Source: Candidatus Giovannonibacteria bacterium RIFCSPHIGHO2_02_FULL_45_13
GTDB taxonomy: Bacteria > Patescibacteriota > Minisyncoccia > UBA11713 > 2-01-FULL-45-33
Direction: 5' to 3'
NCBI GenBank assembly: GCA_001778635.1
Contig: MFHO01000019.1
Coordinates: 1-37,985 of the forward strand
Length of the DNA stretch: 37,985 nucleotides
A model generated the notes under the pieces. That model saw only the letters and a list, made by a program, of their open reading frames with translations, did no database searches and was not told where the DNA came from. A program made the translations under genes and the position numbers. Shown in pieces: positions 1,799 through 37,985 of the stretch; position 1 is the first letter of the stretch, and the number at the start of each line of letters is the position of its first letter.

Positions 1799-1822
1799 AT
1801 GCTGGATATATTAGCACAAATT

Positions 1823-2296: not shown

Positions 2297-2300
2297 TGCT

Positions 2301-3524
2301 TCAAAACGCCCCCACTAAATTATACATTGGAGAAATCATTGAGATCGCGAAAAATCCGACCACGACGCCGATAAGAATCATAAGCGCCGGTTCAATAACC
2401 GTTGAAAGATCTTTCGTGGCCTGCGCCGCTTCACCTTCATAAAAAGACGCAAGGCGCAAAAGCATGTGCGAAAGCTCTCCCGTCTCCTCCCCGATGGCCA
2501 TCATTTCGCCGACCAATGCCGGGTAAAGCTCTCCTGAAGAAAGGAATGCCTTAGAAATGGTCTCGCCGCGCTGGATTTTCGCCCGCGCGTCTTCCAGAAT
2601 ATTTTGATAAAGATGGTTTTGTAAAACTTCTTTTGTTATAGAAATGGCTTCCAATATATCCACGCCGGAAGAAACCAGGGAACTTAAAGTCCGGCAAGTT
2701 CGCGCGGAATTAAATTTTTGATTAATGCCTTTAATAATCGGCAGGTGTGTAAAAAGCCAGTCGACTTGCTTTTTGCCTCTCGGAGACCCAAACCAACGAT
2801 AGAGGGCGTAGCCGGCCGCGGCTGAACCCAAGAGAAAAAATAGGCCGCTTTGCAATAGTGACTTGCTGATTAAAATAATAAATTGAGTAGAAAGAGGCAA
2901 CTCGACTTTTAATTCTTCAAAGGTCGAAATCAAGGTCGGCACAACGTAAATCAGCATCAAAATTCCTATGCCAACCATTGCGATCATTACGATTATGGGA
3001 TAAACCATCGCTCCGCGCACTTTTTTTTTCAAAACATAATCTTTTTTTAATTGCAGGGCTATCAATTTCAGAGACTCTTCCAATTTGCCTGATTTTTCTC
3101 CGGCGCGTACCATCTCCTGGTAAAATTTCGGGAAAATGTCAGGCCGCTCGCCTATTGCTTCGGCAAAAGATTTTCCTTTTTTGATTGATTCGGCCACTTG
3201 CGAAATGGTTGCCTTGAATTTCTCGTTTTGCGTCTGCCTCGCCATCACCTCTAAAGCCTTAGAAAGACTGACACCGGCTCCTATCATAACTGCCGTGTTG
3301 CGCGAAAAATTCAATTTTTCCTCCAAAGAAACCCGCTGAAAAAATTGCGGGATGTAATCGTTCCAGTTTTTTCTCCGCCGGACAACACCGGTCTCCGCCA
3401 CAAAAAGCGGCGTGATTCCGTCCGCTCGCAACATGCGCGCCAAATCATACTGGTCTTTTGCTTCTCTGTTTCCCTCAATATCCGCCCCTCCCTTGTCTCT
3501 GCCCCTATAATGATAAAACGGCAT
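2301..3524 (-). CDS. pilC: Type II secretion system F family / type IV pilus platform protein PilC
   Basis: Two T2SSF domains (MVRAGEKSGKLEESL...KKKVRGAMVYP; MMAIGEETGELSHML...VIEPALM). Confidence 0.93.
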   Translation of the reverse strand: MPFYHYRGRDKGGADIEGNREAKDQYDLARMLRADGITPLFVAETGVVRRRKNWNDYIPQFFQRVSLEEKLNFSRNTAVMIGAGVSLSKALEVMARQTQNEKFKATISQVAESIKKGKSFAEAIGERPDIFPKFYQEMVRAGEKSGKLEESLKLIALQLKKDYVLKKKVRGAMVYPIIVMIAMVGIGILMLIYVVPTLISTFEELKVELPLSTQFIILISKSLLQSGLFFLLGSAAAGYALYRWFGSPRGKKQVDWLFTHLPIIKGINQKFNSARTCRTLSSLVSSGVDILEAISITKEVLQNHLYQNILEDARAKIQRGETISKAFLSSGELYPALVGEMMAIGEETGELSHMLLRLASFYEGEAAQATKDLSTVIEPALMILIGVVVGFFAISMISPMYNLVGAF

Positions 3525-3558
3525 ACATTTATTCTACCAATTTTTAGGATGTTATAAT

Positions 3559-5328
3559 ATGCTTAATACGCCGATGGTAAAGCTTAAAAAAGAAAATTTG
3601 ATAGAGGGATGGAAAATAATTTTGAAATATCTCCGTCCGCACCGCGAGGCGGTTTTTGCGCTGATCGGCTTAAGCGTCGTTTCGGCGGCGCTTAACGCCG
3701 GCGTTCCATACTTGGCTGGGCGCGTAATTGATAGCATTATCAGCCAAAATTCCGCGGTTTTTATTTTTGTCGCCATCTGGTTTTTTGTAAGGATTTCCGG
3801 CAATATCATTGATTGGCGAATTTCGATCCGCAACGACGCGCTTGCTTCCGACCTCGACGGAGAATATATTGCCGTTGGCTACGCAAAACTGCTTAGACTT
3901 CCTCTTTCCTTCCACAAAAATCACAAAATGGGAGATATCTTAAACAGAATTGCGAGGGCGGCCGACCAGCTTTATGATTTGGTGCACCAAATTGTTATCG
4001 GAATGGCTCCGCAGCTTTTAAGCATTGTGTTCGCGCTTTATTTTGTGTTCTCCGCAAACAGCCTGCTTGCGTTAGTTTTAATTTGCAGCGCCATTATCTA
4101 TATTTCAATTTTAATCAAAACCGCGCCGGCGCTGGCCGCAAAATCGAAAGTATCAAATCGGGCGTTTTATCGCGTTTATGGGGACGCGCATGACACGATC
4201 TTAAACGTTGCATCGGTGAAGCAAGCCACCGCGGAGAACGACGCTGCAAAAAAATTATTTCACGGATTCGTGCACAGAGCCTATGGGTTGTGGTTTGAGC
4301 TCACCAAGTTCTGGAGCGTTCTGAATTTTTGGCAAGCATTGCTTGTCGCGGCTGCGCAATTTTTAATTTATTTAATTGCGATTTTTCTAATAAGAGACGG
4401 GAAGCTAACCATTGGAGAACTCGTCATGTTCGGCGGCTACTCCGCGATGTTTTTGGGGCCGTTCGCGTTTATGGGCCGCAACTGGCAGACAATACAAAAC
4501 GGCATTACTGCAATCCAATACGCTGAAAAAATTCTCAACATTCCAGCTGAAGAATATTCGCCCAAGAACACTGTTATCTTAGAAAAGGTTATCGGTGAGG
4601 TGGAGTTTAACAATATCAGTTTTTGGTACAGCAAAAAACAGGGCGAGGTGTTAAAAAATATAAATCTGCGCGCGCTCCCCGGAGAAAAAGTCGCGCTGGT
4701 AGGAGAGTCGGGAGTCGGCAAGAGCACGCTGGTGGATTTGATTTCTCATTATTACAAACCGGCTGCGGGCAAAATTTTAATTGACGGACACAATGTAAAG
4801 AATCTGGATTTAAAATTTTTGCGCTCGCAAATCGCCGTTGTTCCGCAGGAAATCATGCTCTTTAACGATACTATTAAAAATAATATTAAATACGGAAGTT
4901 TCAGCGCGTCCAATGAAAAAATTGCCCACGCTACCGGCCTCGCCCACGCCGATGAATTTATAAATAATTTTCCCAGAAAATATGAGCAAATTGTCGGCGA
5001 GCGCGGGATCAAGCTTTCAATGGGCCAAAAACAGCGTGTAGCTCTGGCGCGCGCTTTCCTGCGCGATCCCAAAATTTTAATTCTGGATGAGCCAACTTCC
5101 GCTTTGGACGCAAAATCTGAAAAATTTATTCAAGAATCCTTGCGCGAGCTTATGCATGGCCGGACAACTTTTATAATCGCGCATCGCTTAAGCACGGTCC
5201 GCGATGTAGATAAAATCTTTGTGCTTCATAAAGGCACAATCGCAGAAGTAGGCACTCACGACGAACTGATTGCCAAAAAAGATGGCGTCTACCGCCGCCT
5301 CTATGAACTGCAGGTTGGATTTAACTGA
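3559..5328 (+). CDS. ABC transporter fused permease/ATP-binding protein (MsbA/MdlB-like exporter)
   Basis: TM domain plus Walker A GESGVGKST, signature LSMGQKQR, Walker B ILILDE and IAHRLST. True start may be ATG 3574. Confidence 0.92.
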   Translation: MLNTPMVKLKKENLIEGWKIILKYLRPHREAVFALIGLSVVSAALNAGVPYLAGRVIDSIISQNSAVFIFVAIWFFVRISGNIIDWRISIRNDALASDLDGEYIAVGYAKLLRLPLSFHKNHKMGDILNRIARAADQLYDLVHQIVIGMAPQLLSIVFALYFVFSANSLLALVLICSAIIYISILIKTAPALAAKSKVSNRAFYRVYGDAHDTILNVASVKQATAENDAAKKLFHGFVHRAYGLWFELTKFWSVLNFWQALLVAAAQFLIYLIAIFLIRDGKLTIGELVMFGGYSAMFLGPFAFMGRNWQTIQNGITAIQYAEKILNIPAEEYSPKNTVILEKVIGEVEFNNISFWYSKKQGEVLKNINLRALPGEKVALVGESGVGKSTLVDLISHYYKPAAGKILIDGHNVKNLDLKFLRSQIAVVPQEIMLFNDTIKNNIKYGSFSASNEKIAHATGLAHADEFINNFPRKYEQIVGERGIKLSMGQKQRVALARAFLRDPKILILDEPTSALDAKSEKFIQESLRELMHGRTTFIIAHRLSTVRDVDKIFVLHKGTIAEVGTHDELIAKKDGVYRRLYELQVGFN

Positions 5329-6914: not shown

Positions 6915-7049
6915 TCAAACAACCAGCCGCTCCCTCCCTTTCTGGCGCCTTCTGGAAAGCACATTGCGGCCCGTTTTGGAGCGCATTCTCTTTAAAAAGC
7001 CATGTGTGCGCGCCCGTTTTCTTTTTTTGGGTTGATAAGTTACAGACAT
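6915..7049 (-). CDS. rpmH: 50S ribosomal protein L34 (not in ORF track)
   Basis: Manual translation: [44 protein letters not shown]. Confidence 0.97.
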
Positions 7050-7159
7050 CGCCTTTTTATTTTACAACAATTTGGCTTTTAAGCAATATTCACAGGCACT
7101 CCACAATCTATTAACATTTTTTACAATGCAATGTTTATCATTAGGTTTATAGTAAAACT
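7050..7159. promoter_or_regulatory. rpmH/dnaA divergent promoter region with degenerate DnaA boxes
   Basis: ATATTCACA 7086-7094 and CACTCCACA 7097-7105; -10 TATAGT 7148-7153 lies 6 nt before the dnaA ATG. Confidence 0.6.
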
Positions 7160-8539
7160 ATGACAAATGAAGAATTGTGGAATGTGGCGCTTGGGGAAAT
7201 AGAGCTAGCCGTGTCGCGAGCAAATTTCGTCACATGGTTTAAGGATACAAAAATCATAGATCAATCCAACGGAATAATAACCGTAGGCGTGCCTAACGGA
7301 TTTTCGAAAGAATGGCTGGAGAACAAATTCCACAAATTTATTCTGAAATCTTTAAGATCAAACGCGCCGGAAATACGCGCCGCAAACTATTCAATCGTTG
7401 CCCCCTCTGCAAACAATGTTAAACCAACTAAGCCAAAATTCAAAAAAGAGCCCATTTTTAACGATGCGGAACAATTGGAATTCAGAGAATTCTACATTGA
7501 TCCCAAAACCAACCTTCATCCTAAATATACCTTAGATTCTTTCATAGTAGGGTCTTTCAACGAGCTTGCTCACGCGGCGGCCATAGCCGTTATTAAAAAT
7601 CCCGGGCGAGCTTACAATCCTTTATTTGTCTACGGAGGCGTCGGGCTTGGAAAAACACACCTTTTGCAGGCAATCGGCAACTCAATACTTAAAGAAGGCC
7701 CCAATAAAAAAGTTTATTACCTCACTTCCGAAAAATTTACGAACGAACTTTTGAATTCCCTGCAAAATCAAACTATTCAAAGTTTCAAAGAAAAATTTAG
7801 AGATTATGATTTGCTTATTGTTGATGATGTGCAATTTTTCGCCAATAAAACAAAAACGCAAGAGGAGTTTTTCCACACATTTAATACGCTTTTTGAATCG
7901 GGCAGGCAGCTTGTTTTTTCTTCCGATAGATCTCCCAAATCCATTCCAAGCATAGGCGAAATAAACGACCGCCTGATTTCCCGCATGGAAGCCGGAGTTC
8001 TTGTAGATATTTCGGAGCCTGAATACGAAGCCAGGCTTGCTATATTAAAAGCAAAATCGGCGGAAAAGAAAATAGATTTGCCAGAATCAACGTTAGAATT
8101 GATCGCTTTAATGGTCCAAAAAAGCATAAGGGAACTGGAAGGCGCACTCAATACGGTAAACATTCAATCAAAATATCAAAACGAGGTGCTTACTAAAGAA
8201 GAAGTTAGGGCGATATTAAGCAAAAATTTAAAACCCAGAAATACCATAACTCCAAGCCAAATCATAAAAACCGTGGCTGAATTTTATGATATACCAGAAA
8301 AATCTATTTACGAACACACAAGAAAAACGGAGGTTGTGCGCCCGCGCCAAATAGCAATGTTTCTGCTCAGAGAAGACCTAAAAGGATCATATCCTTATAT
8401 AGGACAAAAATTTGGCGGCATGGATCACACAACCGCGATTCATGCTTACGAAAAAATCCATGAAGAAACAAAAAAGAACACCAGATTAGAAGAAGAAATA
8501 AAGGGTATTAGAGGTAAATATCAAAACCAACAAAGATAA
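7160..8539 (+). CDS. dnaA: Chromosomal replication initiator DnaA
   Basis: YNPLFVYGGVGLGKTHLL, LLIVDDVQF, QEEFFHTFN, RELEGAL, RPRQIAMFL, FGGMDHTTAIHA. Confidence 0.98.
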   Translation: MTNEELWNVALGEIELAVSRANFVTWFKDTKIIDQSNGIITVGVPNGFSKEWLENKFHKFILKSLRSNAPEIRAANYSIVAPSANNVKPTKPKFKKEPIFNDAEQLEFREFYIDPKTNLHPKYTLDSFIVGSFNELAHAAAIAVIKNPGRAYNPLFVYGGVGLGKTHLLQAIGNSILKEGPNKKVYYLTSEKFTNELLNSLQNQTIQSFKEKFRDYDLLIVDDVQFFANKTKTQEEFFHTFNTLFESGRQLVFSSDRSPKSIPSIGEINDRLISRMEAGVLVDISEPEYEARLAILKAKSAEKKIDLPESTLELIALMVQKSIRELEGALNTVNIQSKYQNEVLTKEEVRAILSKNLKPRNTITPSQIIKTVAEFYDIPEKSIYEHTRKTEVVRPRQIAMFLLREDLKGSYPYIGQKFGGMDHTTAIHAYEKIHEETKKNTRLEEEIKGIRGKYQNQQR

Positions 8540-8641
8540 ATTGTTATTAAAAAAATACATTATTTGTATCAATAACATATCCACAGTTTAAATTATCAAA
8601 AATAAATCTAATCCACAAATTAACATAGCTAATAATAATAT
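8540..8641 (+). promoter_or_regulatory. oriC: Probable oriC unwinding region between dnaA and dnaN
   Basis: AT-rich spacer with near-consensus DnaA boxes ATATCCACA (8577-8585) and TAATCCACA (8609-8617), followed by TAG/TAA trinucleotide repeats (DnaA-trio-like). Confidence 0.75.
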
Positions 8642-9745
8642 ATGAAATTACAGTGTACAAATAATAATATTAAAGATGCGGTTGTGACAGCAGAAAGAAA
8701 CACATCAAAAAACCAAACATTACCTGTATTAAATTCTTTATTAATAGATGCAGAAAAAGATAAAATAAAAATCAGGGCAACAAATCTTGAAACAGCAATA
8801 GAAATAATTGTTCCTGGTAAAATTTTTGAGTCCGGAAGCATAGTTGTGCCTGCAAAAATTTTAAGCTCGTTTTTAGCAAACGCTGGCTTTGAACAAATTA
8901 CATTTCAAACCAATAAAAACAATCTTTTGATCAAAACAGATACTGTGGAAACCATAATTCGTGGTTATCCTTTGGAAGATTTTCCTATATTCCCGCATAT
9001 AAGCGCTCAGGAAAAATTTACCGTTCCGGCTCCTGAATTAAAATACGGAATATCTTCGGTTATTATAGCCGCGAGTCATTCGGATATAAAACCTGAACTA
9101 AGCAGTGTGTTTTTCAATGTTTTTAAAAACACAATTAAAATCGCCGCCACAGATTCATTTAGATTAGCAGAAAAAACCATTATTTCTAAAAATATACAAC
9201 AAGAACGATCTCTATCGTTCTTAATACCACAAAAAGGAGCGCAAGAAATTCTCAAACTGCTCGGTGAGGACGAGGATATAGAGCTCGGAATAAATAAAAA
9301 TCAGATAATTTTAAAACACAGAAACTTAATATTTATATCAAGGCTGACTGATGGTAAATTCCCAGATTATGAACAAATTTTACCGAAAAGTTTCAAAACA
9401 ACGGCAATAGTAAAAAAATCCGACATTTCTTCGCATATGAAATTAGCCGGAGTATTTGTTGGCAAGTTAAACGATATTGGTGTTAATTTCGATCCTGCCA
9501 AAAAATCAATTATTATAAACACTTCCAATTCAGACGTAGGAGAACACGTATCTCAAATAAGCTCTATGATTCAAGGCGATAAAATTTCTGCGAAATTCAA
9601 TGAAAGATATTTATCTGAAGGAATTGCGCAAATTAACAGCGAATATATCGAATTTAATTTAAATACTTCGGAGTCGCCTCTGCTCATCAAGGGCAAAGGA
9701 GATAATTCGTATTTGTATCTTTTAATGCCGATGCGGGGAGTTTAA
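8642..9745 (+). CDS. dnaN: DNA polymerase III beta clamp
   Basis: ATNLE, AATDSFRLAEK, SRLTDGKFPDYEQILP, YLLMPMR. Confidence 0.97.
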   Translation: MKLQCTNNNIKDAVVTAERNTSKNQTLPVLNSLLIDAEKDKIKIRATNLETAIEIIVPGKIFESGSIVVPAKILSSFLANAGFEQITFQTNKNNLLIKTDTVETIIRGYPLEDFPIFPHISAQEKFTVPAPELKYGISSVIIAASHSDIKPELSSVFFNVFKNTIKIAATDSFRLAEKTIISKNIQQERSLSFLIPQKGAQEILKLLGEDEDIELGINKNQIILKHRNLIFISRLTDGKFPDYEQILPKSFKTTAIVKKSDISSHMKLAGVFVGKLNDIGVNFDPAKKSIIINTSNSDVGEHVSQISSMIQGDKISAKFNERYLSEGIAQINSEYIEFNLNTSESPLLIKGKGDNSYLYLLMPMRGV

Positions 9746-27688: not shown

Positions 27689-28096
27689 TCAAGTATCTAG
27701 AATCACATTTTCCAGCATCCTAATCCTGGCCTTTTTGCGCCCAAAATCCAAGAAAACGGCAGCGATGTCTATTTGAAAATCTGTTTCGTCAGGCATTTTT
27801 CTGTCCAATAGATATGTGCGGATAGCGCGGCTCAGCCTTTGTTTTTTCCAAAGACGAATATTTGCTTCGGGCAAATATTCGTCTTTGCCCTCCGAAGCTT
27901 TAGCGTAGGAGGGTCTTACTGTTAGCGCCTTCACCTCCACAAAATGCAAAACGCCGTCCAGCTCCGCCACAATATCAATCTCCCCCCATTTTTTCCGATA
28001 ATTTCTCTCAATAATCTTATACCCCTTCCCTTCCAAAAAACTTGCCGTCAATTCTTCCCCAAGATTCCCCGTCTTTTGTTTTTCGGTTTGAGGCAT
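27689..28096 (-). CDS. yraN: YraN/UPF0102 family endonuclease-like protein
   Basis: GNLGEE...L..KGYKIIERNYRKKWGEIDIVA...FVEVK. Confidence 0.9.
   Translation of the reverse strand: MPQTEKQKTGNLGEELTASFLEGKGYKIIERNYRKKWGEIDIVAELDGVLHFVEVKALTVRPSYAKASEGKDEYLPEANIRLWKKQRLSRAIRTYLLDRKMPDETDFQIDIAAVFLDFGRKKARIRMLENVILDT
27884..27913. repeat. 30-bp hairpin element in frame inside yraN
   Basis: TTTG-CCCTCC-GAA-GCT-TT-AGC-GTA-GGAGGG; encodes PSYAKASEGK. Confidence 0.75.
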
Positions 28097-29114: not shown

Positions 29115-30443
29115 CTATAATTCTTCCAAAATCCTCTCCCTTAATCCATCAAAACCCCTACAAGACATAATTATTATCACGTCATTAGGCTTAACGTCAT
29201 GTTTCACATGAAACAATAGCTTTTCCAAGTCATCAAACGATTTGGCTTGCGTACCGAGCCTATTAAGCTCTTTGGTTATATGTTTCACATGAAACACCTC
29301 ATCGGCTTTAAGGCTATCGGCTTTGTACGGCTTGTATAGATAAACAATATCAGCGCGCCGAAATGCCTCAACATATTGCTTCTCAAAGATTCGACGCTTG
29401 GACGAGGCCGATCCTGGTTCAAACATTAAGAATAGTCGTGAAGCATGAAACTTGGAGCGTAAGGCCATCAATGTTTCACGGACAGCTGTAGGATGATGAG
29501 CGTAATCATCAATCACGGTTATTCCATGTTTCACACCTATAATTTCTGATCGGCGTTGCACGCCTCTAAAGCTGGCAATGGCCTTTTTGATTGTTTCATG
29601 TGAAACACCAATGAATCTGGCCACAGCCGTAGCGGCTAGAATATTGTTGGTAATATAATCAGCACGTTTTGCTCCAAATAGTTTCACGCTTGTCCGCCGA
29701 AGCTTTAGCGAAGGCGGATGAAACTTGCTTACCAGCTCCATCACGTTTTTATCATGCTTATTAGCAACCAAAAGACCATTTTTGGGTATCAAATTTATGA
29801 AACGCGCAAAAGCGTATTTGTAAGCCTCAATATCTTTATAAATATCCACGTGGTCGAGCTCGATATTGTTGATTACTCCGATAAATGGTCGGTAATGCCA
29901 AAATTTAGGGCTTTTATCAAAAAACGCCGTGTCATATTCATCACCCTCTAAAATAATATATTTGCCTTTGCCAAGCTTAAAACTTGAATTGAAATTATTA
30001 GCCACACCACCAACGAAAACGGTCGGATCCAACTTCGCGCATTCTAATATCCAACTCACTAACGCTGTGATAGTTGTTTTACCGTGTGTACCAGTTATTA
30101 CAACAGGTTTTTTTCTGCCAGCTGGCAGATCTATAAATTCGTCCAATAGAATATCGGACATTGACCGATATAGATGTCCGATAGACATTATATATTCGAG
30201 TTCTGGATTGCCGCGGCCGATTGCATTGCCAACAACCACAACGTCTGACCGCCAATGTTTCATGTGAAACTTCGAATACGGCGTAAAAATCTTAATTTTT
30301 AGCCTCTCTAGCATGCTTTTCATCGGTTCATACATTTCTTGGTCAGATCCGGCCACTTCATAGCCTTTTGCTTTTAACAGCCCGGCCAAACTCGCCATCG
30401 CCACCCCGCCTATGCCAATTAGATAAAACCTCTTTTTTCTCAT
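29115..30443 (-). CDS. mpl: Murein peptide ligase Mpl (MurC-like Mur ligase)
   Basis: GIGGVAMASLA..L...G..V.GSD, GNAIGRGNPE, TGTHGKTT, EGDEYDTAFFDKSPKF, NNIELDHVDIY, GVQRR, DDYAHHPTAV. Start placed at ATG 30443, with TATTAT 6 nt upstream. Confidence 0.85.
   Translation of the reverse strand: MRKKRFYLIGIGGVAMASLAGLLKAKGYEVAGSDQEMYEPMKSMLERLKIKIFTPYSKFHMKHWRSDVVVVGNAIGRGNPELEYIMSIGHLYRSMSDILLDEFIDLPAGRKKPVVITGTHGKTTITALVSWILECAKLDPTVFVGGVANNFNSSFKLGKGKYIILEGDEYDTAFFDKSPKFWHYRPFIGVINNIELDHVDIYKDIEAYKYAFARFINLIPKNGLLVANKHDKNVMELVSKFHPPSLKLRRTSVKLFGAKRADYITNNILAATAVARFIGVSHETIKKAIASFRGVQRRSEIIGVKHGITVIDDYAHHPTAVRETLMALRSKFHASRLFLMFEPGSASSKRRIFEKQYVEAFRRADIVYLYKPYKADSLKADEVFHVKHITKELNRLGTQAKSFDDLEKLLFHVKHDVKPNDVIIIMSCRGFDGLRERILEEL
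29200..29215. promoter_or_regulatory. parS: parS-like site
   Basis: TGTTTCACATGAAACA versus the parS consensus TGTTTCACGTGAAACA. Confidence 0.8.
29281..29296. promoter_or_regulatory. parS: parS-like site
   Basis: TGTTTCACATGAAACA. Confidence 0.8.
29592..29607. promoter_or_regulatory. parS: parS-like site
   Basis: TGTTTCATGTGAAACA. Confidence 0.8.
29689..29718. repeat. 30-bp hairpin element in frame inside mpl, splitting a parS palindrome
   Basis: CTTG-TCCGCC-GAA-GCT-TT-AGC-GAA-GGCGGA; the flanks rejoin to AGTTTCACGTGAAACT. Confidence 0.8.
30256..30271. promoter_or_regulatory. parS: parS-like site
   Basis: TGTTTCATGTGAAACT. Confidence 0.75.
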
Positions 30444-30578
30444 GTATAAATAATAACAAAAAAGCGCTCCGACTACTGTCGAAACGCTTATTTTCTCTAA
30501 CACAATCAGATTTTGGCTTGCCCGCCATCTGATCTATGCTTTCCTTTGGCATCCACGACCTTGGTCGGGACCCTCCGG

Positions 30579-31604
30579 CTAAGCTGTTAGATTTTCATGT
30601 GGTTTGAAATAGTGCGAAGCGCAATTTGCGTTATTTGGTGAAACCTCTGCGAGGCATCTTGTACACTCTAAAAGATCAATCACTGGTTTGCGGTCTGGTC
30701 CGATATGGTTCCTTTTTACTTTGTAGGCTCCATGGATTGTGCCGTTGTCCCTAGACTCAAATGAATATAAAGCCCCCTCAGCACATTTTGCGTATCCTTC
30801 CAACACGGATTTTGTTTCAGCGACACTTTCTCGTAAAATGCTGTTTAGCGCCTGATGTACTGTTTTCAAACGGTCTTGTTCCGTTTTCAAACGATCTTGT
30901 TCCGTGTGGAGTTCGCTTATCGTTTCAACCAGTCTATCATTTTCTTGCTTTTGCTTTCTGATTTCTTCATCTGCGCCCTCTTTTAATCGCAGTTGTTCGT
31001 GGGCCAAGCTGAGCTTTGTATGGACATGCGCAAAGTCTTTTTCTAGGGCCTTCTGCTTGTCTTCGGTTTCCCAAAGTTTTTTGATTACATCGGCGTTTTT
31101 GGTTTCGGCTTCATTAATTCGCTGTTTTACATCCAGACCCCATAAAAACCACCAGCACCAAAGCAAAGCTAGCGCCACGCTGATAATGACTAGGCCACGA
31201 ATATCCGGCAATTTGCTGTCTTGCCCTTCTTGATAAGCTCTATTCGCCGCGATGCGCTCGTAAAACTTTATCGGTTTCACCACTGACTCCACTGAATACA
31301 AAGGAACGCGCAGTTTGCCGCCAGTTAAAATTAAATCTTTGCTTTTCACACTCGGATTCTCTTTGTTCATCGCCCGCAATTCATTCACGGTAGTACCGAA
31401 AATCTTTGCTAATTTCGTTAAATTGTCCCCGCGCCTAATTTTATATTCAAAAGGTCTGATTACCGGCAGTTCGGAAACCGGCTCAATATTCACGGTTTCA
31501 CTTAGTTTTGCGTTCGGGTCCGGTAAAATGACTTGAGCCGCTTTTGAATTCGCCACGAAAATAAGCGCACACGTAAGCATTGCCGCAAAAACCACCTTTT
31601 TCAT
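30579..31604 (-). CDS. LysM domain membrane protein with coiled coil and C-terminal Cys/His motif
   Basis: Signal peptide, LysM YKIRRGDNLTKLAKIFGTTVNELRAMN...LILTGGKLRVP, TM helix, coiled coil, CTRC...C..H; GGAGG RBS. Confidence 0.8.
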   Translation of the reverse strand: MKKVVFAAMLTCALIFVANSKAAQVILPDPNAKLSETVNIEPVSELPVIRPFEYKIRRGDNLTKLAKIFGTTVNELRAMNKENPSVKSKDLILTGGKLRVPLYSVESVVKPIKFYERIAANRAYQEGQDSKLPDIRGLVIISVALALLWCWWFLWGLDVKQRINEAETKNADVIKKLWETEDKQKALEKDFAHVHTKLSLAHEQLRLKEGADEEIRKQKQENDRLVETISELHTEQDRLKTEQDRLKTVHQALNSILRESVAETKSVLEGYAKCAEGALYSFESRDNGTIHGAYKVKRNHIGPDRKPVIDLLECTRCLAEVSPNNANCASHYFKPHENLTA

Positions 31605-31675: not shown

Positions 31676-32740
31676 TTATTCGATTTTATAACCGACGCGT
31701 TTTAGAAGTTTTGCCAGATCCCCGGCTCCATTAATGGCGCCGTATTTTTTTTCCAGCTCTTCGGACTCCTTCTTTGCGGCAGATGCGTTGGCTTCAAAAT
31801 TTTCGTCTTTGATAAATTGCTTCAGCCGGCTTTTTATCTCTTCGGCTTTGGCGCTCCCATTAATAATCTTGTTGGTTGCCAGACTTTCATTCCAAAGAAT
31901 TTTTTGCCAGAGAGCAAAGCCTCGTTGCGCTTTTTTAAAATTAATAACGGTTTTGGCCATTTCCGACATTTCTTCCGAAGTTAGATTTTGTATTCCTTTG
32001 GTAAGCTTTTCTTTGATTTGATCCTGTGTTTCCCTTAATTCCGCATTCCCGCTGTTCCGGAATTTTCCGTAGTCGCTGCCGGTCCCCACATCTCCGCGCA
32101 GATCGGCGCTGGCAATCGCAAAAGCCCTCAACGAACTATCCGGAGTGAGATATCGTTGAGAGATTTTTAATCCTTTTGTGCCGTCTGGCAGATCAGCCAT
32201 CATAAAATCAGGATAGGTTGCGGCGATATCCATTAAAATTTCCTGCCGGAAACCGCCTGATTCGGTTTGAAAAACCCCAGCTCCGTTATTATGATAAACA
32301 TATTTCTCAAGTTCTTTGAGCAATTCTTCCGCGCTATTTCTTTCGTTGCCGATGGTGTGTCCGCTTTCTCTCGCCGCTTTTCCTAAGTTTTCATCTTCAA
32401 ATCCTTCAAAACCGCGCAGTCTTTTTCTCGGCTGGCCTTTCGGCCTCAAGCTTGCCTGAACAATATCGTGATACAAACTCTCGCTTGCTACAAAATCCAA
32501 ATCGAAATCGCTGACTAAACCTGGGTCAATTTCTTTAACAATTTCTAAAACGCGCCTCGCATTCTTGGCCACGTTCTCCGAATGTTCCCGAACATGATAC
32601 TCCATCGGGTCTTGGCCTTCCGACCCGAAACGCTCGTTGAGAATCTTGCGCGCGCCTTCATTAATTTTTAAATACGCTTCGTTGATGCTCTCAACAACAA
32701 TTTTATTGCCTTCCGACTCTCTGGCTTCAAACTGTTCCAT
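31676..32740 (-). CDS. HD-superfamily hypothetical protein
   Basis: YHVREHS...SLYHDIVQ...NERNSAE...I.AT...ASADL pattern. Confidence 0.6.
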   Translation of the reverse strand: MEQFEARESEGNKIVVESINEAYLKINEGARKILNERFGSEGQDPMEYHVREHSENVAKNARRVLEIVKEIDPGLVSDFDLDFVASESLYHDIVQASLRPKGQPRKRLRGFEGFEDENLGKAARESGHTIGNERNSAEELLKELEKYVYHNNGAGVFQTESGGFRQEILMDIAATYPDFMMADLPDGTKGLKISQRYLTPDSSLRAFAIASADLRGDVGTGSDYGKFRNSGNAELRETQDQIKEKLTKGIQNLTSEEMSEMAKTVINFKKAQRGFALWQKILWNESLATNKIINGSAKAEEIKSRLKQFIKDENFEANASAAKKESEELEKKYGAINGAGDLAKLLKRVGYKIE

Positions 32741-32819: not shown

Positions 32820-32912
32820 ATTAAAGTAAGCCGCCGTGAAAGTGCTCGCGGGCCGCTTCACTAGAATTTTTTTTTAAAAACCACCGAAAATCTGGATTTT
32901 GTTGGCTTTGGC

Positions 32913-33491
32913 CTACGCCGCCTTTTTACCAATGCTTTTCAAGCACAATTTCATGTATTCATCTTTGATAAACTCAATTTTTCCTTTTTGCGGAAAAGGT
33001 TTCAGCGTCCCTATCGATTTAAGAACGACTTCTTGCCCGCCGCAAAGCGCATCGTGCACAACGCGCACCCAGATGTCCAGCATCAATCCGACAAATCCGT
33101 GAAAATTAGCTTTATCGCAAAATTTTTTTCTGAATTTTTTTAACAGTCTATCCTCTTTCATTTGCGTCGCGAAAAAACCAGCAACGTAACTTTCCAACGG
33201 CTTAATCGTACTCTCGTTCCCAAAAAGATGCTTCATTTTCAGCTCTTTTTTCATTTCTTTCTCGGTAACAAAGTCAACATCTTTCTTTCTCGGGCGCAGC
33301 CGAAATTCTCCCACCCATGCTATTTGCAATTTTTGCCCTTCCAGAATGGAATTTCTGCAATTGATTATCAGGGAGTTGCAGAAATCTTTACCCAATTCTT
33401 CCGCCGATGGCTCAGCAAATCCTTCATCCCAGAGAACGCCTTCCGCCTCCAAATTACGCCTAAAGTCTTCAAGATCGTACATATTTCTCAT
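32913..33491 (-). CDS. Hypothetical protein with two HU/IHF-like core repeats
   Basis: SILEGQKLQIAWVGEF...VDF and DALCGGQEVVLKSIGTL...IEF align by eye to HU GALKNGEEVSIAGFGAF...PRF. Confidence 0.6.
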   Translation of the reverse strand: MRNMYDLEDFRRNLEAEGVLWDEGFAEPSAEELGKDFCNSLIINCRNSILEGQKLQIAWVGEFRLRPRKKDVDFVTEKEMKKELKMKHLFGNESTIKPLESYVAGFFATQMKEDRLLKKFRKKFCDKANFHGFVGLMLDIWVRVVHDALCGGQEVVLKSIGTLKPFPQKGKIEFIKDEYMKLCLKSIGKKAA

Positions 33492-33664
33492 TTTTTAACC
33501 AATCTTCTGACTATAAGCTAACAAAAAGCCGCCCTCTAAGTCAAGGCGCGTAATGCTATGGGGCAGGGATTGCTAGCGCTATCCATTACACAAAGCCGAT
33601 GTGCGCAAACGTTGATTAAAATTGCATTTTTAAAAACAAATTATCTAAAAACAAAAAGGGCTGC

Positions 33665-34099
33665 TTATGCAGCCGCTTTAACAAACTGGTGTTCAATGTT
33701 CCACTTGAAATGTGTTTCTGTAGTCGTAATCCTTTCAGTGTTTTCTGGCACCTTGCCTGTGTTTAACCATTCAAAAAAGTTTCCTTTTGCGTCTCTCTCC
33801 ATCTCAACAATGTAATATTCTCTACTATCCACATCCCGCTTAAAGCTCAAGATTTTGCCTTTGGGTCTTACGCCGTAACCAACAATATTTCTATTTTTCA
33901 GCTCAATGACATCGCCTGCTTTAAACTTAAAGTAGCCATTGGTATTATACCAGACAGCCAGTTTCCCAGAACTCAAAGTAAGATTACTGGGTATAAGGTA
34001 AAGAGCGAACCAACCGGCGATTTTCTTCGGTATTTTATTCATATATAATGGCGCGCTTAAAAAAAGCAGCACTGTCAGTACAAAAATCGTCTTTTTCAT
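33665..34099 (-). CDS. Hypothetical exported/membrane-anchored protein
   Basis: AGGAGG before ATG 34099 (MKKTIFVLTVLLFLSA signal-like). Confidence 0.65.
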   Translation of the reverse strand: MKKTIFVLTVLLFLSAPLYMNKIPKKIAGWFALYLIPSNLTLSSGKLAVWYNTNGYFKFKAGDVIELKNRNIVGYGVRPKGKILSFKRDVDSREYYIVEMERDAKGNFFEWLNTGKVPENTERITTTETHFKWNIEHQFVKAAA

Positions 34100-34151
34100 C
34101 GTCAAACCTCCTAAAAATTTATCTTCCACCATCCTAGCAAAAAACCGCCTT

Positions 34152-35723
34152 TTAAGTCAAGGCGGTATGTTTGATGATGCGCTTTTTAGCTTCGTCCCAA
34201 AGATTGCCGTTTCGTACAATGGTGCTATCCAAATCTTTTTTGATTTGCTCGTGAATCAGCGCAGTAAGCAAGGACGGCTCTTTAAACCACATAAATTCTT
34301 TCGGCCAGCTCTCATTAAATTCTCTTAAAATCAATTCTTTCGTGGCCCACAACGGCAAGATGTCTGCGACGCGGAACGGTTCGCGCTGATCTTCCAAGGC
34401 CAGCGCGCTTTTTTCTCCGAGTTCTCGCGCGACTTTTTCTTTTAGATCAGACATTTGTCTTTCGTAAAGCGGTGGGACATAAAAAGAAATTTTTCCGTCC
34501 ACCCAAGCGCGCGCGATGTTGCTTCTCTGAACATTGGACGCACCTTCGTAAATATCTAACGGCAAAGAGTCAAGAACAAAGCGCGCGATTTCCATATCAG
34601 CAAGATAGCCAGAGCCGCCGTAAATTCTTTGCGCTTCCTGCGTCAGCCATCTCGCGTTTTCAGATGAAAACAGCTTTGCAAGTGAAGCGTAATGAGCAAA
34701 TTCCGCGCCTTGGTCTTCCAGCCAAGCGGAATAAAAAAGTAAAATTCTGGAAATGTCGGCAGCAAGGACCATTTTCACGATTGGGTCGCCAATTCCCGAA
34801 TGAACAATGGTTGGCACGCCGAAAGCGATGCGATTTTGCGCGTGCTTTAAAGAAAGTAAGGTGACTGCATCCAAGATTCCAATTCCCTGCGCCGCGATCC
34901 AATTGCGTCCGTGGTTTAGTGTTGCCATAGCGCCCTTGCCAAAACCATTACCAAGTTCGCCCAAAAGGCAGCTTTCCGGCACAAAAAGATTGTTGAACAC
35001 GATTGAACCCATGTGAGCGGCATGAAGCCCTAATTTCTGTTCAGGTTTTCCGATTTTAAGCGCCCCGCTTTTTTTATCTTCACGCCTCACAGGAATCAAA
35101 AAAGCTGAAACGCCGCGATGGTCTTTAATTGTGCGATCGGTTCTTGCAAAAACAATTAAAAATTTCGCGACAGGAGCGTTCGTGATAAAACACTTTTCGC
35201 CGGAGATTGAAAAACCTCCGCTAACCGGCTCGGCATAAGTTTCTATGCGCGCAGCGTCTGACCCGTGATTCGGCTCTGTAAGGCAGAACGATCCCAAAAT
35301 TTTTCCGGCGACAAGTTCTGGCAGCCATTTTCTTTTTTGCTCTTCGCTCCCAAGCCTGAACAGGGGATCGCTAACCAATGAATTGCCGACTCCCAGAATC
35401 AATGCTCCTCCCGACCAGACTTTGCACATTTCTATCATGGCAATAACGCCCGAGAGATTGTCCATTCCTGCGCCGCCGTATTCTTCCGGAATATTTATGC
35501 CGCAAAGCCCCAGCTCTGCCATTTCTCTCACAAGCGGCCACGCGAAAGGCGCGTTGTGCCGCTCGTACTTTTGGATCATTCCCGGCTTATCTTGTTTATC
35601 TTTCGGATCTGCTTTATGCGTGATGTCCGCCGCATTCATTCTCTCGCGCACCATATTCCTTACCATCAAATGCTCTTCGGCTAATTTCATTGTCGATGTC
35701 ATTTCTGGTGAAATACGTAGCAC
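34152..35723 (-). CDS. Acyl-CoA dehydrogenase with C-terminal extension
   Basis: GLCGINIPEEYGGAG, FCLTEPNHGSDA, GEKCFITN, KLGL, LNHGR, R.AFG, QRIYGGSGY, IYEGASNVQR. Confidence 0.92.
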   Translation of the reverse strand: MLRISPEMTSTMKLAEEHLMVRNMVRERMNAADITHKADPKDKQDKPGMIQKYERHNAPFAWPLVREMAELGLCGINIPEEYGGAGMDNLSGVIAMIEMCKVWSGGALILGVGNSLVSDPLFRLGSEEQKRKWLPELVAGKILGSFCLTEPNHGSDAARIETYAEPVSGGFSISGEKCFITNAPVAKFLIVFARTDRTIKDHRGVSAFLIPVRREDKKSGALKIGKPEQKLGLHAAHMGSIVFNNLFVPESCLLGELGNGFGKGAMATLNHGRNWIAAQGIGILDAVTLLSLKHAQNRIAFGVPTIVHSGIGDPIVKMVLAADISRILLFYSAWLEDQGAEFAHYASLAKLFSSENARWLTQEAQRIYGGSGYLADMEIARFVLDSLPLDIYEGASNVQRSNIARAWVDGKISFYVPPLYERQMSDLKEKVARELGEKSALALEDQREPFRVADILPLWATKELILREFNESWPKEFMWFKEPSLLTALIHEQIKKDLDSTIVRNGNLWDEAKKRIIKHTALT

Positions 35724-35752
35724 AAATTAAAAATCGCCGCAAGGGCGACTTT

Positions 35753-36865
35753 TTATTTAATTTTACTTAATTTTTCATCCAAAAATTCGCAAAGAGCATC
35801 TATGCCTTCTCCGGTTATTGCCGATACTGGGAAATACGGTTTTTGAAAACGCTCTTTAAGCGCGAGTTCGGCGCGGAAAGCTGGCTCTTTATCAATTTTG
35901 TTGAGCAAAATTGCGTCTGCGAGTTCGTGCGCCCCGCCTTTCATAAGCCGTAAGTCATCGGTTTCATTCGGCAGCGCGACCCACAAGAAAAGATCCGCCA
36001 GATTTTTTATTGCCGAAGACGTTTCTTGCCCAAGCCCGATTGTTTCAAAAAATATCAGTTTTGCTCCCCACAATTTCGCCAAACCAGCCAAATTTTTAAG
36101 AAATGTCACGCGCTTTTTGCTGTAGTTTCCGAACTGCGAAACACTGCGGATAAAAATATTTTCGTTTGAAGTATGATCCTGCACGACGAGCCTATCACCC
36201 AAAAATGCACCCTTCAGTTTCGGCCCGCGCGGATCGCACAAAAAAACAGCGATTTTTATCCCGCGTTTCCCAACGCGTTCCAAAACGGCGTTTAGCAAAC
36301 TGCTTTTGCCGGCGCCAGTTGGGCCGCCGAGTACCACCGTTATCGCGTTGCTTTCCACGGGAGTGCTTAAAATCAGAGAGCCGCGTTCTTGGCTGGTGAT
36401 TGCCGCGGCCAAAATCTCGCGCGGTATGCCATGCCCCACAGCAAACTCATTTTGCTGATTCTTTTCTTTTTCCCGGCATTCTCGCAAAATGTACTTCGCG
36501 ATTTCGTCATGGGTGGTTGCGGAAAGAAACACTTTAAATCCCATAGCGCTTAATTTTTCTCTCACGTCGGGAAATGTTATTTCTCCGCTGCCTCCAGCAA
36601 TAAGAATTTTATTTTCCAATCCGGAAGATTCAAGCAGTTTTTTCAAATGTCCCAAAAGCACAACCGGATCGCCAGTGTGCACGGAAACCCCTATCGCGTC
36701 AGGATCTTCCTCAATGGCGGTTTTTATGATCTGTGTCCACGATTGTTGCAGCCCAGGCCAGATAGAGTCAATATTGCGCTTTCTCAAAAACACTATCAGG
36801 TCGTGAATTGGCCTGTCGTGGCCGTCCAATGGGGGTTTTATCAAAAGTATCTTCGGCGATTTCAT
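35753..36865 (-). CDS. Cobalamin-binding domain fused to MeaB/ArgK-type GTPase (IcmF N-half-like)
   Basis: N-terminal LDGHDRP...EEDPDAIGVSVHTG...IAGG; C-terminal GGPTGAGKSS, DP...GAFLGDR, IFIRS, ETIGLGQ, MKGG..E.AD...NKID, VSAITGEG. AGGAGG before ATG 36865. Confidence 0.85.
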   Translation of the reverse strand: MKSPKILLIKPPLDGHDRPIHDLIVFLRKRNIDSIWPGLQQSWTQIIKTAIEEDPDAIGVSVHTGDPVVLLGHLKKLLESSGLENKILIAGGSGEITFPDVREKLSAMGFKVFLSATTHDEIAKYILRECREKEKNQQNEFAVGHGIPREILAAAITSQERGSLILSTPVESNAITVVLGGPTGAGKSSLLNAVLERVGKRGIKIAVFLCDPRGPKLKGAFLGDRLVVQDHTSNENIFIRSVSQFGNYSKKRVTFLKNLAGLAKLWGAKLIFFETIGLGQETSSAIKNLADLFLWVALPNETDDLRLMKGGAHELADAILLNKIDKEPAFRAELALKERFQKPYFPVSAITGEGIDALCEFLDEKLSKIK

Positions 36866-36875
36866 CTCAACCTCC

Positions 36876-37985
36876 TTAATCCCCATGACCGCGCCAGCGG
36901 CCGAAAACCGGCTCCAGAGTTTTTATCATGCTTTCCTCCACCGTAGCGTAAGATTCCACCGCTTCCATAACCGGCTCCACCAAATTACCGCCTCCGCGCG
37001 CTTCGCCAGCAAGCCGCTTAAGGCATTTTTCAACCCGCGCCTCGTCGCGCTCTTTTTGTACTTTAGCCAAGCGCTCTTTTTGTTTTTGGTGCGTTTCTAA
37101 TGTAGGAACGCGGATCATTTTGCTAAAAATCTCCTTTTCTTCGCGTTCAGCCGACGCTTGATCAAAATATTTATTGACGCCGACGATAACGATTTCCGGA
37201 GGGCTTTTGTTCGTCCGCTCAGCTTCCGCCAAAGAAGTTTTTTTGATTTCAAGTTGCGGATAACCAAGCTCTATTGCGCGCAACATTCCGCCAAGCGCTT
37301 CTATTTTTTTGAAATATTCGCGCACCCCGCGCTCCATTTCGCTTGTATGCCATTCCAAATAATAACTTCCGCCAACCGCGTCCACAACGTCGGCGATGTT
37401 CATTTCTTCTCCGACAATCTGCTGTGTTCTGATGGCCTCTTTGACGGCTTCCGTGCTCGGCAACGCCATTTCCTCATCCCACGAATTCAGATGAATTGAC
37501 TGCGCTCCTCCCAAGAAAGCCGCCAGATAGTGCAACGCGCCGCGTACGACGTTATTGCGCGGCTCTTGCCGCTTGAAGCTCACGCCGGAGTTTTGGACAT
37601 GAAATTTAAGGGCAAGCGATCTTGGACTTTTAGCGCCGTATTTGTTTTTTAGAGTTTCGTACCAAATCTTCCGCGCCACGCGGAATTTGGCAATTTCTTC
37701 CCAAAATCCTTTGCAGTTGAAAAAGCAGGACATGCGCCCGGCAACGTCATCAATATTCATGCCGCGACTCAAGCAATATTCCAACAAAACGAAAGCGTTT
37801 TTAAAAGTGAAAGCAAGTTCCTGCACAGGAGACGCGCCTTGCTCCGCCATGTGGTAACCGGAAGAATTGACGGGGTAGAATCCGAAATCCATGTTTCGTA
37901 TGGCGAATTCCATCATATCTCCTTCAAGCCGCATGCCGTGCTCAAGAGGAAATCTGTATTCTTTCTGACTTATGATTTCCTTGCG
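36876..37985 (-). CDS. B12-dependent acyl-CoA mutase large (substrate-binding) subunit, ICM/HCM-like; 5'-truncated by window edge
   Basis: Frame is open to the edge (RKEIISQKEYRFPLEHGMRL...); SGYHMAEQGASPVQELAFT, EEIAKFRVARKIW, FHVQNSG, NNVVR, GGAQSIH.NS.DE, D.VGGSYYLE, VGVNKY. Confidence 0.92.
   Translation of the reverse strand, partial: RKEIISQKEYRFPLEHGMRLEGDMMEFAIRNMDFGFYPVNSSGYHMAEQGASPVQELAFTFKNAFVLLEYCLSRGMNIDDVAGRMSCFFNCKGFWEEIAKFRVARKIWYETLKNKYGAKSPRSLALKFHVQNSGVSFKRQEPRNNVVRGALHYLAAFLGGAQSIHLNSWDEEMALPSTEAVKEAIRTQQIVGEEMNIADVVDAVGGSYYLEWHTSEMERGVREYFKKIEALGGMLRAIELGYPQLEIKKTSLAEAERTNKSPPEIVIVGVNKYFDQASAEREEKEIFSKMIRVPTLETHQKQKERLAKVQKERDEARVEKCLKRLAGEARGGGNLVEPVMEAVESYATVEESMIKTLEPVFGRWRGHGD

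Follow-up and report, generated by a model that had tools for sequence, protein, structure and literature searches.

A three-gene unit at the contig end

We analyzed a 37,985-bp stretch of DNA from Candidatus Giovannonibacteria bacterium RIFCSPHIGHO2_02_FULL_45_13 (contig MFHO01000019.1; hereafter "the window," which is the entire contig C19 of the genome that we call G000), and in particular the three minus-strand genes at its far end, which connect a B12-dependent acyl-CoA mutase with an acyl-CoA dehydrogenase (ACAD). In the direction of transcription these are the acyl-CoA mutase large (substrate-binding) subunit, represented by its C-terminal 369 residues and open at the contig end (36876-37985; PF01642); a 377-amino-acid (aa) fusion of a B12-binding domain and a MeaB-type G-protein chaperone (35753-36886; PF02310 and PF03308); and a 523-aa short-chain-type ACAD with three ACAD Pfam domains (34152-35723). 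The mutase and fusion frames overlap by 11 nt, and 29 nt separate the fusion from the ACAD. A preliminary description of this DNA had reported three co-oriented, tightly spaced genes here, and the listing of open reading frames (ORFs) agrees with it to the nucleotide, with the domains as named.

A consensus scan places a terminator-like hairpin (an 8-bp stem with 5 G-C pairs, then a T run) at 34144-34166 on the minus strand, overlapping the ACAD stop codon, and this hairpin is likely the 3' end of the transcription unit. As the scan returned 14 sites against 8.5 ± 2.9 expected, the hairpin is weak evidence by itself; a promoter scan performed at chance level (6 found, 6.6 expected). At the other end, the first 165 residues of the mutase lie on another contig of the same assembly (C11, 2-496, minus strand), and alignment with the contiguous orthologue of a genome of the same genus (G001) indicates that about 22 codons are unassembled in the gap between C11 and C19.

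The mutase large subunit and its active site

The mutase piece in the window matches PF01642 over profile positions 165-512 of 512 (2.3e-101; 340.3 bits, cut-off 22.1) and passes the cut-off of TIGR00641 (329.5 bits against 303.8), and the C11 piece covers positions 1-139 of the PF01642 profile. The G001 orthologue, a contiguous 556-aa gene that is 88-91% identical to the two G000 pieces, scores 462.3 bits over positions 1-524. Judged by these profile matches, the large subunit is a member of the acyl-CoA mutase superfamily (PF01642/TIGR00641).

In the methylmalonyl-CoA mutase (MCM) of P. shermanii, Tyr89 and Arg207 bind the substrate carboxylate; Phe and Gln replace them in isobutyryl-CoA mutases, and 2-hydroxyisobutyryl-CoA mutase (HCM) has Ile and Gln at these positions, together with a specificity Asp. 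Gln occupies the Arg207 position in the window piece and Phe the Tyr89 position in the C11 piece, and this Phe/Gln pair, with Ala at the HCM-Asp position, is shared with the orthologues in G001 and in G012, a genome of the same family. In alignments with PDB entries, human MCM as a control reads Tyr/Arg and HcmA reads Ile/Gln plus Asp, while two IcmF controls from named isolates read Phe/Gln and pass the IcmF equivalog model NF045497 (1650 and 1674 bits, cut-off 1500). Across 123 aligned large subunits, 104 carry Phe/Gln and 18 carry Tyr/Arg. The other mutases that we compared read Phe/Gln (G005, of the same family), Gln with the Phe position cut off (family genus g7) and Tyr/Arg (G086, a genome of the Candidate Phyla Radiation, CPR, outside the family). 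By its residue pattern, the active site is of the isobutyryl-CoA mutase type (the ICM/IcmF/PCM group), with the residue roles taken from general background and the pattern confirmed in the controls.

Two narrower assignments were considered and rejected. The enzyme does not fit HCM, as it has Phe and Ala where HcmA has Ile and Asp. Nor does it belong to the IcmF equivalog NF045497, since two separate genes are involved and, against the cut-off of 1500, the fusion reaches 91.7 bits and the large subunit 228.

A B12-binding and MeaB-type fusion protein

The fusion carries PF02310 at residues 12-104 (35.3 bits, cut-off 32.1) and PF03308 (MeaB) at residues 179-370 (1.8e-28; 99.7 bits, cut-off 23.1), and it aligns to positions 12-352 of the 1076 of the IcmF model, at a score far under the cut-off. 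With the TIGR00750 equivalog it reaches 106.7 bits, below the cut-off of 240.75. The G-protein motifs (P-loop GxxGxGK[ST], Walker-B-like ETxGxGQ and NKxD) are intact and invariant in the alignment; with the PF03308 match, they identify a G-protein chaperone domain of the MeaB/MMAA type. The true start may be a Met 7 codons downstream of the listed one, as in G001. A profile search of G000 returned only one PF02310 domain over the cut-off, that of the fusion, so that this protein must double as small subunit and chaperone.

Sequence identity is 44-98% among fusions of the same clade and at most 32% outside it. Two-domain fusions of 345-414 aa that are about 30% identical occur in Planctomycetota, where they are named "Fused isobutyryl-CoA mutase" or "cobalamin-dependent protein"; to our knowledge, no two-domain B12-binding/MeaB fusion has been characterized.

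A short-chain-type acyl-CoA dehydrogenase with a C-terminal extension

The third gene has the three ACAD Pfam domains PF02771 (2e-28), PF02770 (1.7e-20) and PF00441 (1.5e-29), and its translation probably begins at an ATG that lies 7-19 codons within the GTG frame as listed. Among PDB sequences, its core (residues ~58-407) is nearest to MmgC (5lnx), short-chain acyl-CoA dehydrogenase (SCAD) and butyryl-CoA dehydrogenase (BCD), at 4.5e-70 to 3e-59, and the catalytic Glu is kept in the C-terminal "YEG" motif. An AlphaFold model built from a 60-row alignment (pLDDT 95, pTM 0.94) has rat SCAD (1jqi) as its best Foldseek match (TMt 0.95, over the whole SCAD chain). By sequence and predicted fold alike, the protein belongs to the short-chain group, closest to SCAD/BCD. 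As it reaches no NCBIfam equivalog cut-off (best AcrC, 260.7 against 640), its substrate is assigned by similarity only.

Rat SCAD, B. subtilis MmgC and Megasphaera BCD (1buc) are 34-37% identical to the window protein, which differs from all three in the lack of an electron-transfer flavoprotein (ETF) partner in its family of genomes and in a C-terminal extension of about 115 aa (residues ~408-523), modeled as four extra helices (418-522) at pLDDT 95-98. The extension was found in 6 proteins in a collection of 5.8 billion, and three full representatives plus one fragment align through it among 1.84 billion proteins; on these comparisons it is lineage-specific. The extension of very-long-chain-type dehydrogenases (2z1q, 3b96) resembles it only loosely (TMq 0.72-0.74, rmsd 7-10 Å).

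The wider cluster, its linkage and selection

The three genes form the distal part of a larger cluster. On C11, upstream (5') of the mutase, lie genes for a citrate/methylcitrate synthase, PrpD, PrpB and an RsmE-type methyltransferase, followed by those for the E1, lipoyl and E2 components of a 2-oxoacid dehydrogenase and LplA, and then the mutase. The dehydrogenase portion (1531-4516; 859-1521) is unusual: E1 is an alpha-beta fusion of 685 aa, a free-standing lipoyl protein of 87 aa is encoded by a gene that overlaps the one for the 223-aa E2 catalytic domain, and a divergent LplA adjoins. G001 has the order PrpD-PrpB-E1-lipoyl-E2-LplA-mutase-fusion-ACAD on one contig, of 88.7 kb, that holds the whole cluster. 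The conserved Giovannonibacteria cluster opens with the fused E1, and in this genus it takes in methylcitrate-cycle genes as well.

A further contig of G000, C18, encodes a FadB-like bifunctional enzyme, two thiolases, a second ACAD, an acyl carrier protein (ACP) and an AMP-forming ligase. At 9952-13477 of C18, the AMP-dependent ligase, the ACP-like carrier protein and the 387-aa ACAD stand in series, and a gene for an IS200-type (Y1) transposase lies between this row and the two thiolase and FadB-like genes. The row looks like a carrier-protein-linked acyl-activation cassette beside beta-oxidation genes.

Within the family, the mutase occurs in 8 of 20 species genomes (genera g1, g5, g7 and g12), and the ACAD in exactly the same 8. 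As these genomes are kin (4 of the 12 genera) and hence not independent, their co-occurrence is no statistical test. A fused E1 (685-753 aa) is present in all 8 and in one more of the 20, and in each of the 7 mutase-bearing genomes other than G000 it lies on the mutase contig at a distance of 3-5 kb. A strong FadB-like match was found in 6 of the 8, and PrpD in 4 of the 8 (4 of the 20 in the family). Across the phylum, 4 of 401 sampled genomes (G000 included) have the mutase and 7 have the ACAD, a rarity that the preliminary description had correctly anticipated for Patescibacteria.

Compared with G001, dN/dS is 0.10 for the mutase, 0.10 for the fusion, 0.13 for the ACAD, 0.09 for E1 and 0.13 for PrpB, and the range over six genes of the cluster is 0.09-0.13. 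The three genes are native to their host and under purifying selection. The earlier idea of a horizontally acquired module, taken as a stand-alone and recent acquisition, is not supported: the genes are instead one end of a larger cluster that is conserved in four genera, with dN/dS of 0.10-0.13.

The methylcitrate genes bring up another assignment, that of a methylmalonyl-CoA mutase with a role in propionate or succinate metabolism. Propionyl-CoA genes of the methylcitrate type do lie in the same cluster, the G012 orthologue is named "methylmalonyl-CoA mutase" at NCBI, and in G086, from another CPR family, a Tyr/Arg-type mutase has its small subunit and its MeaB as separate proteins. The portion of Castelle et al. 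2017 (PMC5220378) available to us likewise reads the mutase of a Parcubacterium as MCM. The window enzyme, on the other hand, has Phe/Gln where MCM has Tyr/Arg, and it scores 282.6 bits with the MCM equivalog PRK09426, whose cut-off is 876. The carboxyltransferase PF01039 (propionyl-CoA carboxylase) is present in 0 of the 20 family genomes, so that no route to methylmalonyl-CoA was found, and the methylcitrate route already disposes of propionyl-CoA. The mutase is, in addition, independent of the propionate genes, as PrpD is found in only half of the mutase-bearing genomes. We rejected the MCM assignment on the residues, the sub-cut-off score and the missing carboxyltransferase, and give a role of this kind only a slim chance.

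Host genome and contig integrity

The G000 assembly comprises 833,541 bp in 36 contigs (95.97% completeness, 0.5% contamination). Forty relatives from its genus, family and class all measure 0.5-1.2 Mb, and in a phylum sample of 400 genomes those listed measure 0.5-0.9 Mb at ~100% completeness. NCBI lists the orthologues in G001 and G012 under the organism name Candidatus Giovannonibacteria bacterium, with the G001 proteins entered as "hypothetical protein A3G55_04100/04095." On the basis of a small genome in a small-genome phylum and of these names, the host is a CPR bacterium of the Parcubacteria group; that it belongs to the CPR is what the preliminary description had supposed. A search with DnaA matched generic DnaA clusters only and pointed to no lineage.

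Elsewhere the window carries dnaA, dnaN and tyrS and encodes a class A penicillin-binding protein, iPGM, RNase Y, a Mur ligase and a platform protein of type IV pili. One concern, also expressed in the preliminary description, is that binning or assembly joined a foreign operon to CPR housekeeping genes at ~33-34 kb, and G+C does rise slightly, to 0.465-0.477 in the last 4 kb from 0.42-0.43 just before. Every contig of G000, though, falls within 0.42-0.48. In G012, the mutase and fusion genes directly adjoin homologues of the window genes for a LysM protein (30579-31604) and the Mur ligase (29115-30503) and of the gene at 27689-28096, and the synteny on the 88.7-kb contig of G001 was noted above. 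Contigs from other groundwater runs, moreover, bridge 32838-34734 with zero differing letters and a depth of 6.4-6.6 on both sides. The stretch is present in 17 runs of 14 studies, and 9 of these runs contain at least half of its sampled words; runs with under 0.2 of the words were excluded, also as a guide to habitat. The contig is not chimeric, and an artefactual junction is extremely improbable.

Mutase architectures and origin

Three arrangements of the mutase occupy this locus in the family. The first, which we call type A (G000, G001 and G012), consists of a large subunit and a B12-MeaB fusion. G005 has a two-gene layout like that of type A, but its two proteins are only 38% and 30% identical to it. 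In genus g7, the mutase is a single chain with a C-terminal B12 domain (DGHTVG), accompanied by a short stand-alone MeaB, in the order mutase-MeaB-ACAD; the ACAD of this genus is 54-59% identical to that of the window.

In a quick IQ-TREE phylogeny of 59 large subunits (10 rows of type A), type A forms one clade (SH-aLRT 100) with a stem of 0.85 substitutions per site, nested among Phe/Gln sequences. The G005 mutase falls elsewhere, on a branch of 1.1 and in a placement that the program itself flagged as unsure, and the G086 mutase groups with the Tyr/Arg sequences. The nearest large subunits outside the clade, from Bathyarchaeota, WOR-3 and other lineages, are 43-46% identical. Among the matches listed from GTDB species genomes, the fusion comes closest to proteins of the IcmF type (23-37% identity), and these matches yielded no donor. 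These distances suggest no recent donor; an ancient transfer, or several transfers, is plausible.

Proposed pathway and missing partners

We read the genes as a two-polypeptide "split IcmF," that is, an adenosylcobalamin (AdoCbl)-dependent mutase, together with a short-chain ACAD, at the end of a cluster for the breakdown of branched 2-oxoacids, and put the probability of this reading at roughly 55%. From the gene content we infer the substrate and the order of the steps. The 2-oxoacid dehydrogenase with the fused E1 would oxidatively decarboxylate 2-oxoisovalerate (from valine) to isobutyryl-CoA, which the mutase would convert to n-butyryl-CoA; the B12 domain of the fusion would serve the large subunit, and its MeaB-type GTPase would load and repair the B12 cofactor. 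The ACAD would then oxidize n-butyryl-CoA to crotonyl-CoA, and the FadB-like enzyme and thiolases of C18 would take crotonyl-CoA to acetyl-CoA. PrpC/D/B, for their part, may handle propionyl-CoA derived from other 2-oxoacids. Such a route would sidestep the long canonical valine pathway. As the formation of acyl-CoA by E1/E2 is irreversible, the direction of flow would be fixed, and the cluster is consistent with the order "isomerize, then oxidize" that the preliminary description had suggested. Of the interpretation offered there, then, the gene identities, the CPR host, the rarity and the direction hold; the stand-alone recent module does not, nothing in our analysis supports a part in host manipulation, and the claim of an unrecognized capacity is half right (see below).

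Several observations weigh against the branched 2-oxoacid reading. The first group concerns specificity: the Phe/Gln pair does not discriminate isobutyryl-CoA from isovaleryl/pivalyl-CoA or other substrates, and the meaning given to these signature residues comes from background literature. The residues beside the signature are unusual in the clade ("RQFCGR" for "RQFAGF" and "KE[AIV]..QKEY" for "KEY.AQKEW"), its stem is long, and the His-on motif of the fusion reads DxHxxP, not DxHxxG, with Asp, His and GG retained. The second group concerns redox partners and energy. ETF (PF01012), which the preliminary description had proposed to seek beyond the window, is present in 0 of the 20 family genomes, in a search that was positive for 10 of 14 control genomes and for the CPR genome G086. 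None of 5 genomes has subunit I of cytochrome oxidase. The E3-type domain PF02852 was found in only 3 of the 20, G000 not among them, and the G001 match was rejected as E3 because it has MerT/DsbD-like neighbors and looks like MerA. With no ETF and no convincing E3, both the 2-oxoacid dehydrogenase and the ACAD are, by textbook standards, unable to turn over. Acetate kinase was found in 0 of 5 genomes and an ADP-forming acyl-CoA synthetase in neither G000 nor G001, so the energy gain is not accounted for. Finally, no adenosyltransferase was found in G000 itself, where the site syntenic with that of the G001 adenosyltransferase gene is intact and free of assembly gaps, and the gene is missing. 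No clear BtuC-type importer was found either; FecCD matches just over the cut-off in 2 of 5 genomes were too weak to be accepted as a B12 importer. A class IV aminotransferase, present in 5 of 5 genomes, was not counted as evidence, as it may be a D-amino-acid transaminase.

The use of AdoCbl as such is a family baseline. A PduO adenosyltransferase occurs in 12 of the 20 family genomes, 7 of which have no mutase, and the AdoCbl-dependent ribonucleotide reductase NrdJ is over its cut-off in 4 of 5 genomes (G001, G012, G005 and G003; not G000). The adenosyltransferase that the preliminary description had suggested looking for thus exists in the family but was not found in G000. The use of scavenged B12 or a related cobamide is plausible, with neither the PduO adenosyltransferase nor NrdJ found in G000. 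Contig C17 of G012 (6993-9616) has a PduO adenosyltransferase near a 399-aa flavoprotein of the Pyr_redox_2/Rubredoxin_C type, which has no homologue in G000; this flavoprotein is a possible alternative redox partner.

The same gaps can be read as decay, with the cluster of G000 an orphan remnant that no longer carries flux: ETF, E3, an adenosyltransferase and an ATP-yielding step are all among the functions not found. Against decay stand the intact frames, the low dN/dS over six genes and the linkage conserved in four genera. Moreover, no ribonucleotide reductase was detected in G000 (the NrdJ model gave 0 candidates), so the assembly is evidently incomplete, with at least one essential gene missing despite "96%" completeness; the absences in this genome are in part assembly gaps, and those seen in G000 alone weigh little. 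We regard a decaying remnant as improbable.

A further explanation is a new type of acyl-CoA mutase with an undescribed specificity, to whose product the long ACAD would be tuned, coupled to an unconventional redox arrangement such as an oxidase-like ACAD or the re-oxidation of lipoyl groups without E3. Several features would fit. The clade is monophyletic (SH-aLRT 100) on its long stem, has only ~10 members among 5.8 billion clustered proteins and shows clade-specific substitutions adjoining the signature residues. The base-off/His-on cobalamin motif is DxHxxG ... GG, and DxHxxP stands in its place in all ten close homologues of the fusion (P0002-P0011), while Planctomycete-type fusions keep the Gly; the ACAD extension is restricted to the lineage, and ETF is missing throughout the family. 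However, CPR proteins are fast-evolving in general, so that a long branch alone is no proof of a new function, and the ACAD core folds like an ordinary SCAD and keeps the usual catalytic Glu. G005 and genus g7, furthermore, have ordinary-looking Q-type mutases at the same locus with the same neighbors, including an orthologous ACAD in g7, which argues that all three types share one job. A new enzyme type is therefore possible but unlikely in our estimation. The same holds, tentatively, for its broader form, a CPR-specific mutase clade with a differing substrate or cobamide preference, an ETF-independent ACAD with a new C-terminal domain and an E3-less 2-oxoacid dehydrogenase; if true, it would represent a minimal branched-chain catabolic route with undescribed electron disposal.

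Relation to known systems

Several characterized enzymes come close to the proposed split IcmF. In Streptomyces, IcmA/IcmB has a split large subunit of ~560 aa with Phe/Gln and a separate MeaB-like chaperone, and connects valine-derived isobutyryl-CoA to butyryl-CoA. Judged by description only, the present system differs from it by uniting small subunit and chaperone in one protein. With IcmF of Cupriavidus metallidurans (PDB 4xc6), the Giovannonibacteria proteins share the B12-binding, MeaB-type G-domain and substrate-barrel modules, the Phe/Gln pair and, on one polypeptide, the order of B12 domain then G-domain, in the stretch of the IcmF model that the fusion covers (positions 12-352). They differ from it in the barrel, which has its own gene upstream of the fusion gene, whereas that of IcmF is fused at the C-terminus; in the 23-37% identity of the fusion to IcmF-type relatives (among the GTDB matches listed) and its DxHxxP His-on motif; and in the large subunit, which resembles split subunits (HcmA, 2.6e-105) more closely than it does IcmF (1.2e-61, partial). 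The portion of a published account that we could consult (PMC10481361) describes IcmF as interconverting isobutyryl-CoA and n-butyryl-CoA and as acting also on isovaleryl/pivalyl-CoA. HcmA/HcmB of Aquincola (PDB 4r3u) gives the best match among solved structures and has Gln at the Arg207 position; it differs at two specificity positions, with Ile and Asp where the CPR enzyme has Phe and Ala.

A comparable physiology is found in syntrophic bacteria, which, according to the excerpt available (PMC5017805), degrade isobutyrate via isomerization to butyrate. The likeness, so far as that excerpt goes, is that a B12 mutase makes a branched C4 acyl-CoA straight, after which ordinary beta-oxidation takes over; the entry here appears to be a 2-oxoacid dehydrogenase rather than the free acid. 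A further difference is that syntrophic isobutyrate degraders are known to possess electron carriers of the ETF type along with energy-conservation systems.

Descriptions of CPR bacteria usually portray them as sugar fermenters that lack fatty-acid or amino-acid catabolism. An exception, in the passages of Castelle et al. 2017 (PMC5220378) accessible to us, is "Candidatus Parcunitrobacter nitroensis," which is described there as having co-located prpC/D/B with a "methylmalonyl-CoA mutase" nearby, two ACADs, full beta-oxidation, ETF and an electron-transport chain, as having no carboxylase or epimerase and no B12 synthesis, and as carrying these genes in highly divergent forms that are very rare in CPR. 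In comparison with those passages, the Giovannonibacteria differ in that they have no ETF (0 of 20) and that their enzyme is split-IcmF-like and of the Phe/Gln type. G086 has a Tyr/Arg mutase, ETF and ACD, some of which are also Parcunitrobacter traits in the same passages; the identity of the two organisms is not established.

As a mutase/methylcitrate/ACAD set is thus on record for another Parcubacterium (PMC5220378, in the passages accessible), the capacity cannot be called unrecognized in CPR as a whole, but the Giovannonibacteria lineage is new. A literature search returned no publication joining Giovannonibacteria with a mutase or with acyl-CoA, and among papers on beta-oxidation and acyl-CoA dehydrogenases in Patescibacteria there was nothing evidently on such a cluster, judged by title or abstract. 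New in the present analysis are the lineage, the reassignment on the Phe/Gln pair, a split-IcmF architecture that carries DxHxxP, the linkage of E1, mutase and ACAD conserved across three architectures, and a context that lacks both ETF and E3.

Besides the one published Parcubacterium, this is a second CPR lineage that keeps a B12-dependent carbon-skeleton rearrangement under purifying selection. Our results suggest that annotations of "methylmalonyl-CoA mutase" in Giovannonibacteria should read isobutyryl-CoA-type mutase, a reassignment that would dissolve, for Giovannonibacteria, the published puzzle of the missing carboxylase and epimerase. The presence of three mutase architectures at one locus in one family amounts to a natural experiment in the fusion and fission of subunits between a B12 enzyme and its chaperone, and the missing ETF and E3 raise the question of how ultra-small cells re-oxidize flavin and lipoyl cofactors.

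Other observations in the window and in a related genome

Directly 3' of the ACAD terminator lie three minus-strand ORFs, at 33665-34132 (155 aa), 32913-33491 (192 aa) and 31676-32740 (354 aa), none of which matches a Pfam or NCBIfam model; G001 lacks a counterpart of the 155-aa ORF at this position. Between 7000 and 10000, G+C falls to 0.33-0.36 over dnaA (7160-8539) and dnaN (8642-9745), compared with ~0.44 elsewhere, and this is probably the region of the replication origin. Inside the Mur ligase gene, at 29665-29997, contigs from four metagenome runs reach ~15-20 times the neighboring depth. Many metagenome contigs diverge on either side of ~29689-29719, which indicates that ~30 nt are common to many other organisms in those samples; this shared stretch is probably a highly conserved Mur-ligase motif. 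In G001, contig C1 (~98400-102300) has a ~5.6-kb insertion that is not present in G000 and encodes a 560-aa MerA-like flavoprotein, a MerT-like protein and a DsbD-like membrane protein; from its gene content, it looks like a mercury-resistance-type island in a CPR genome.

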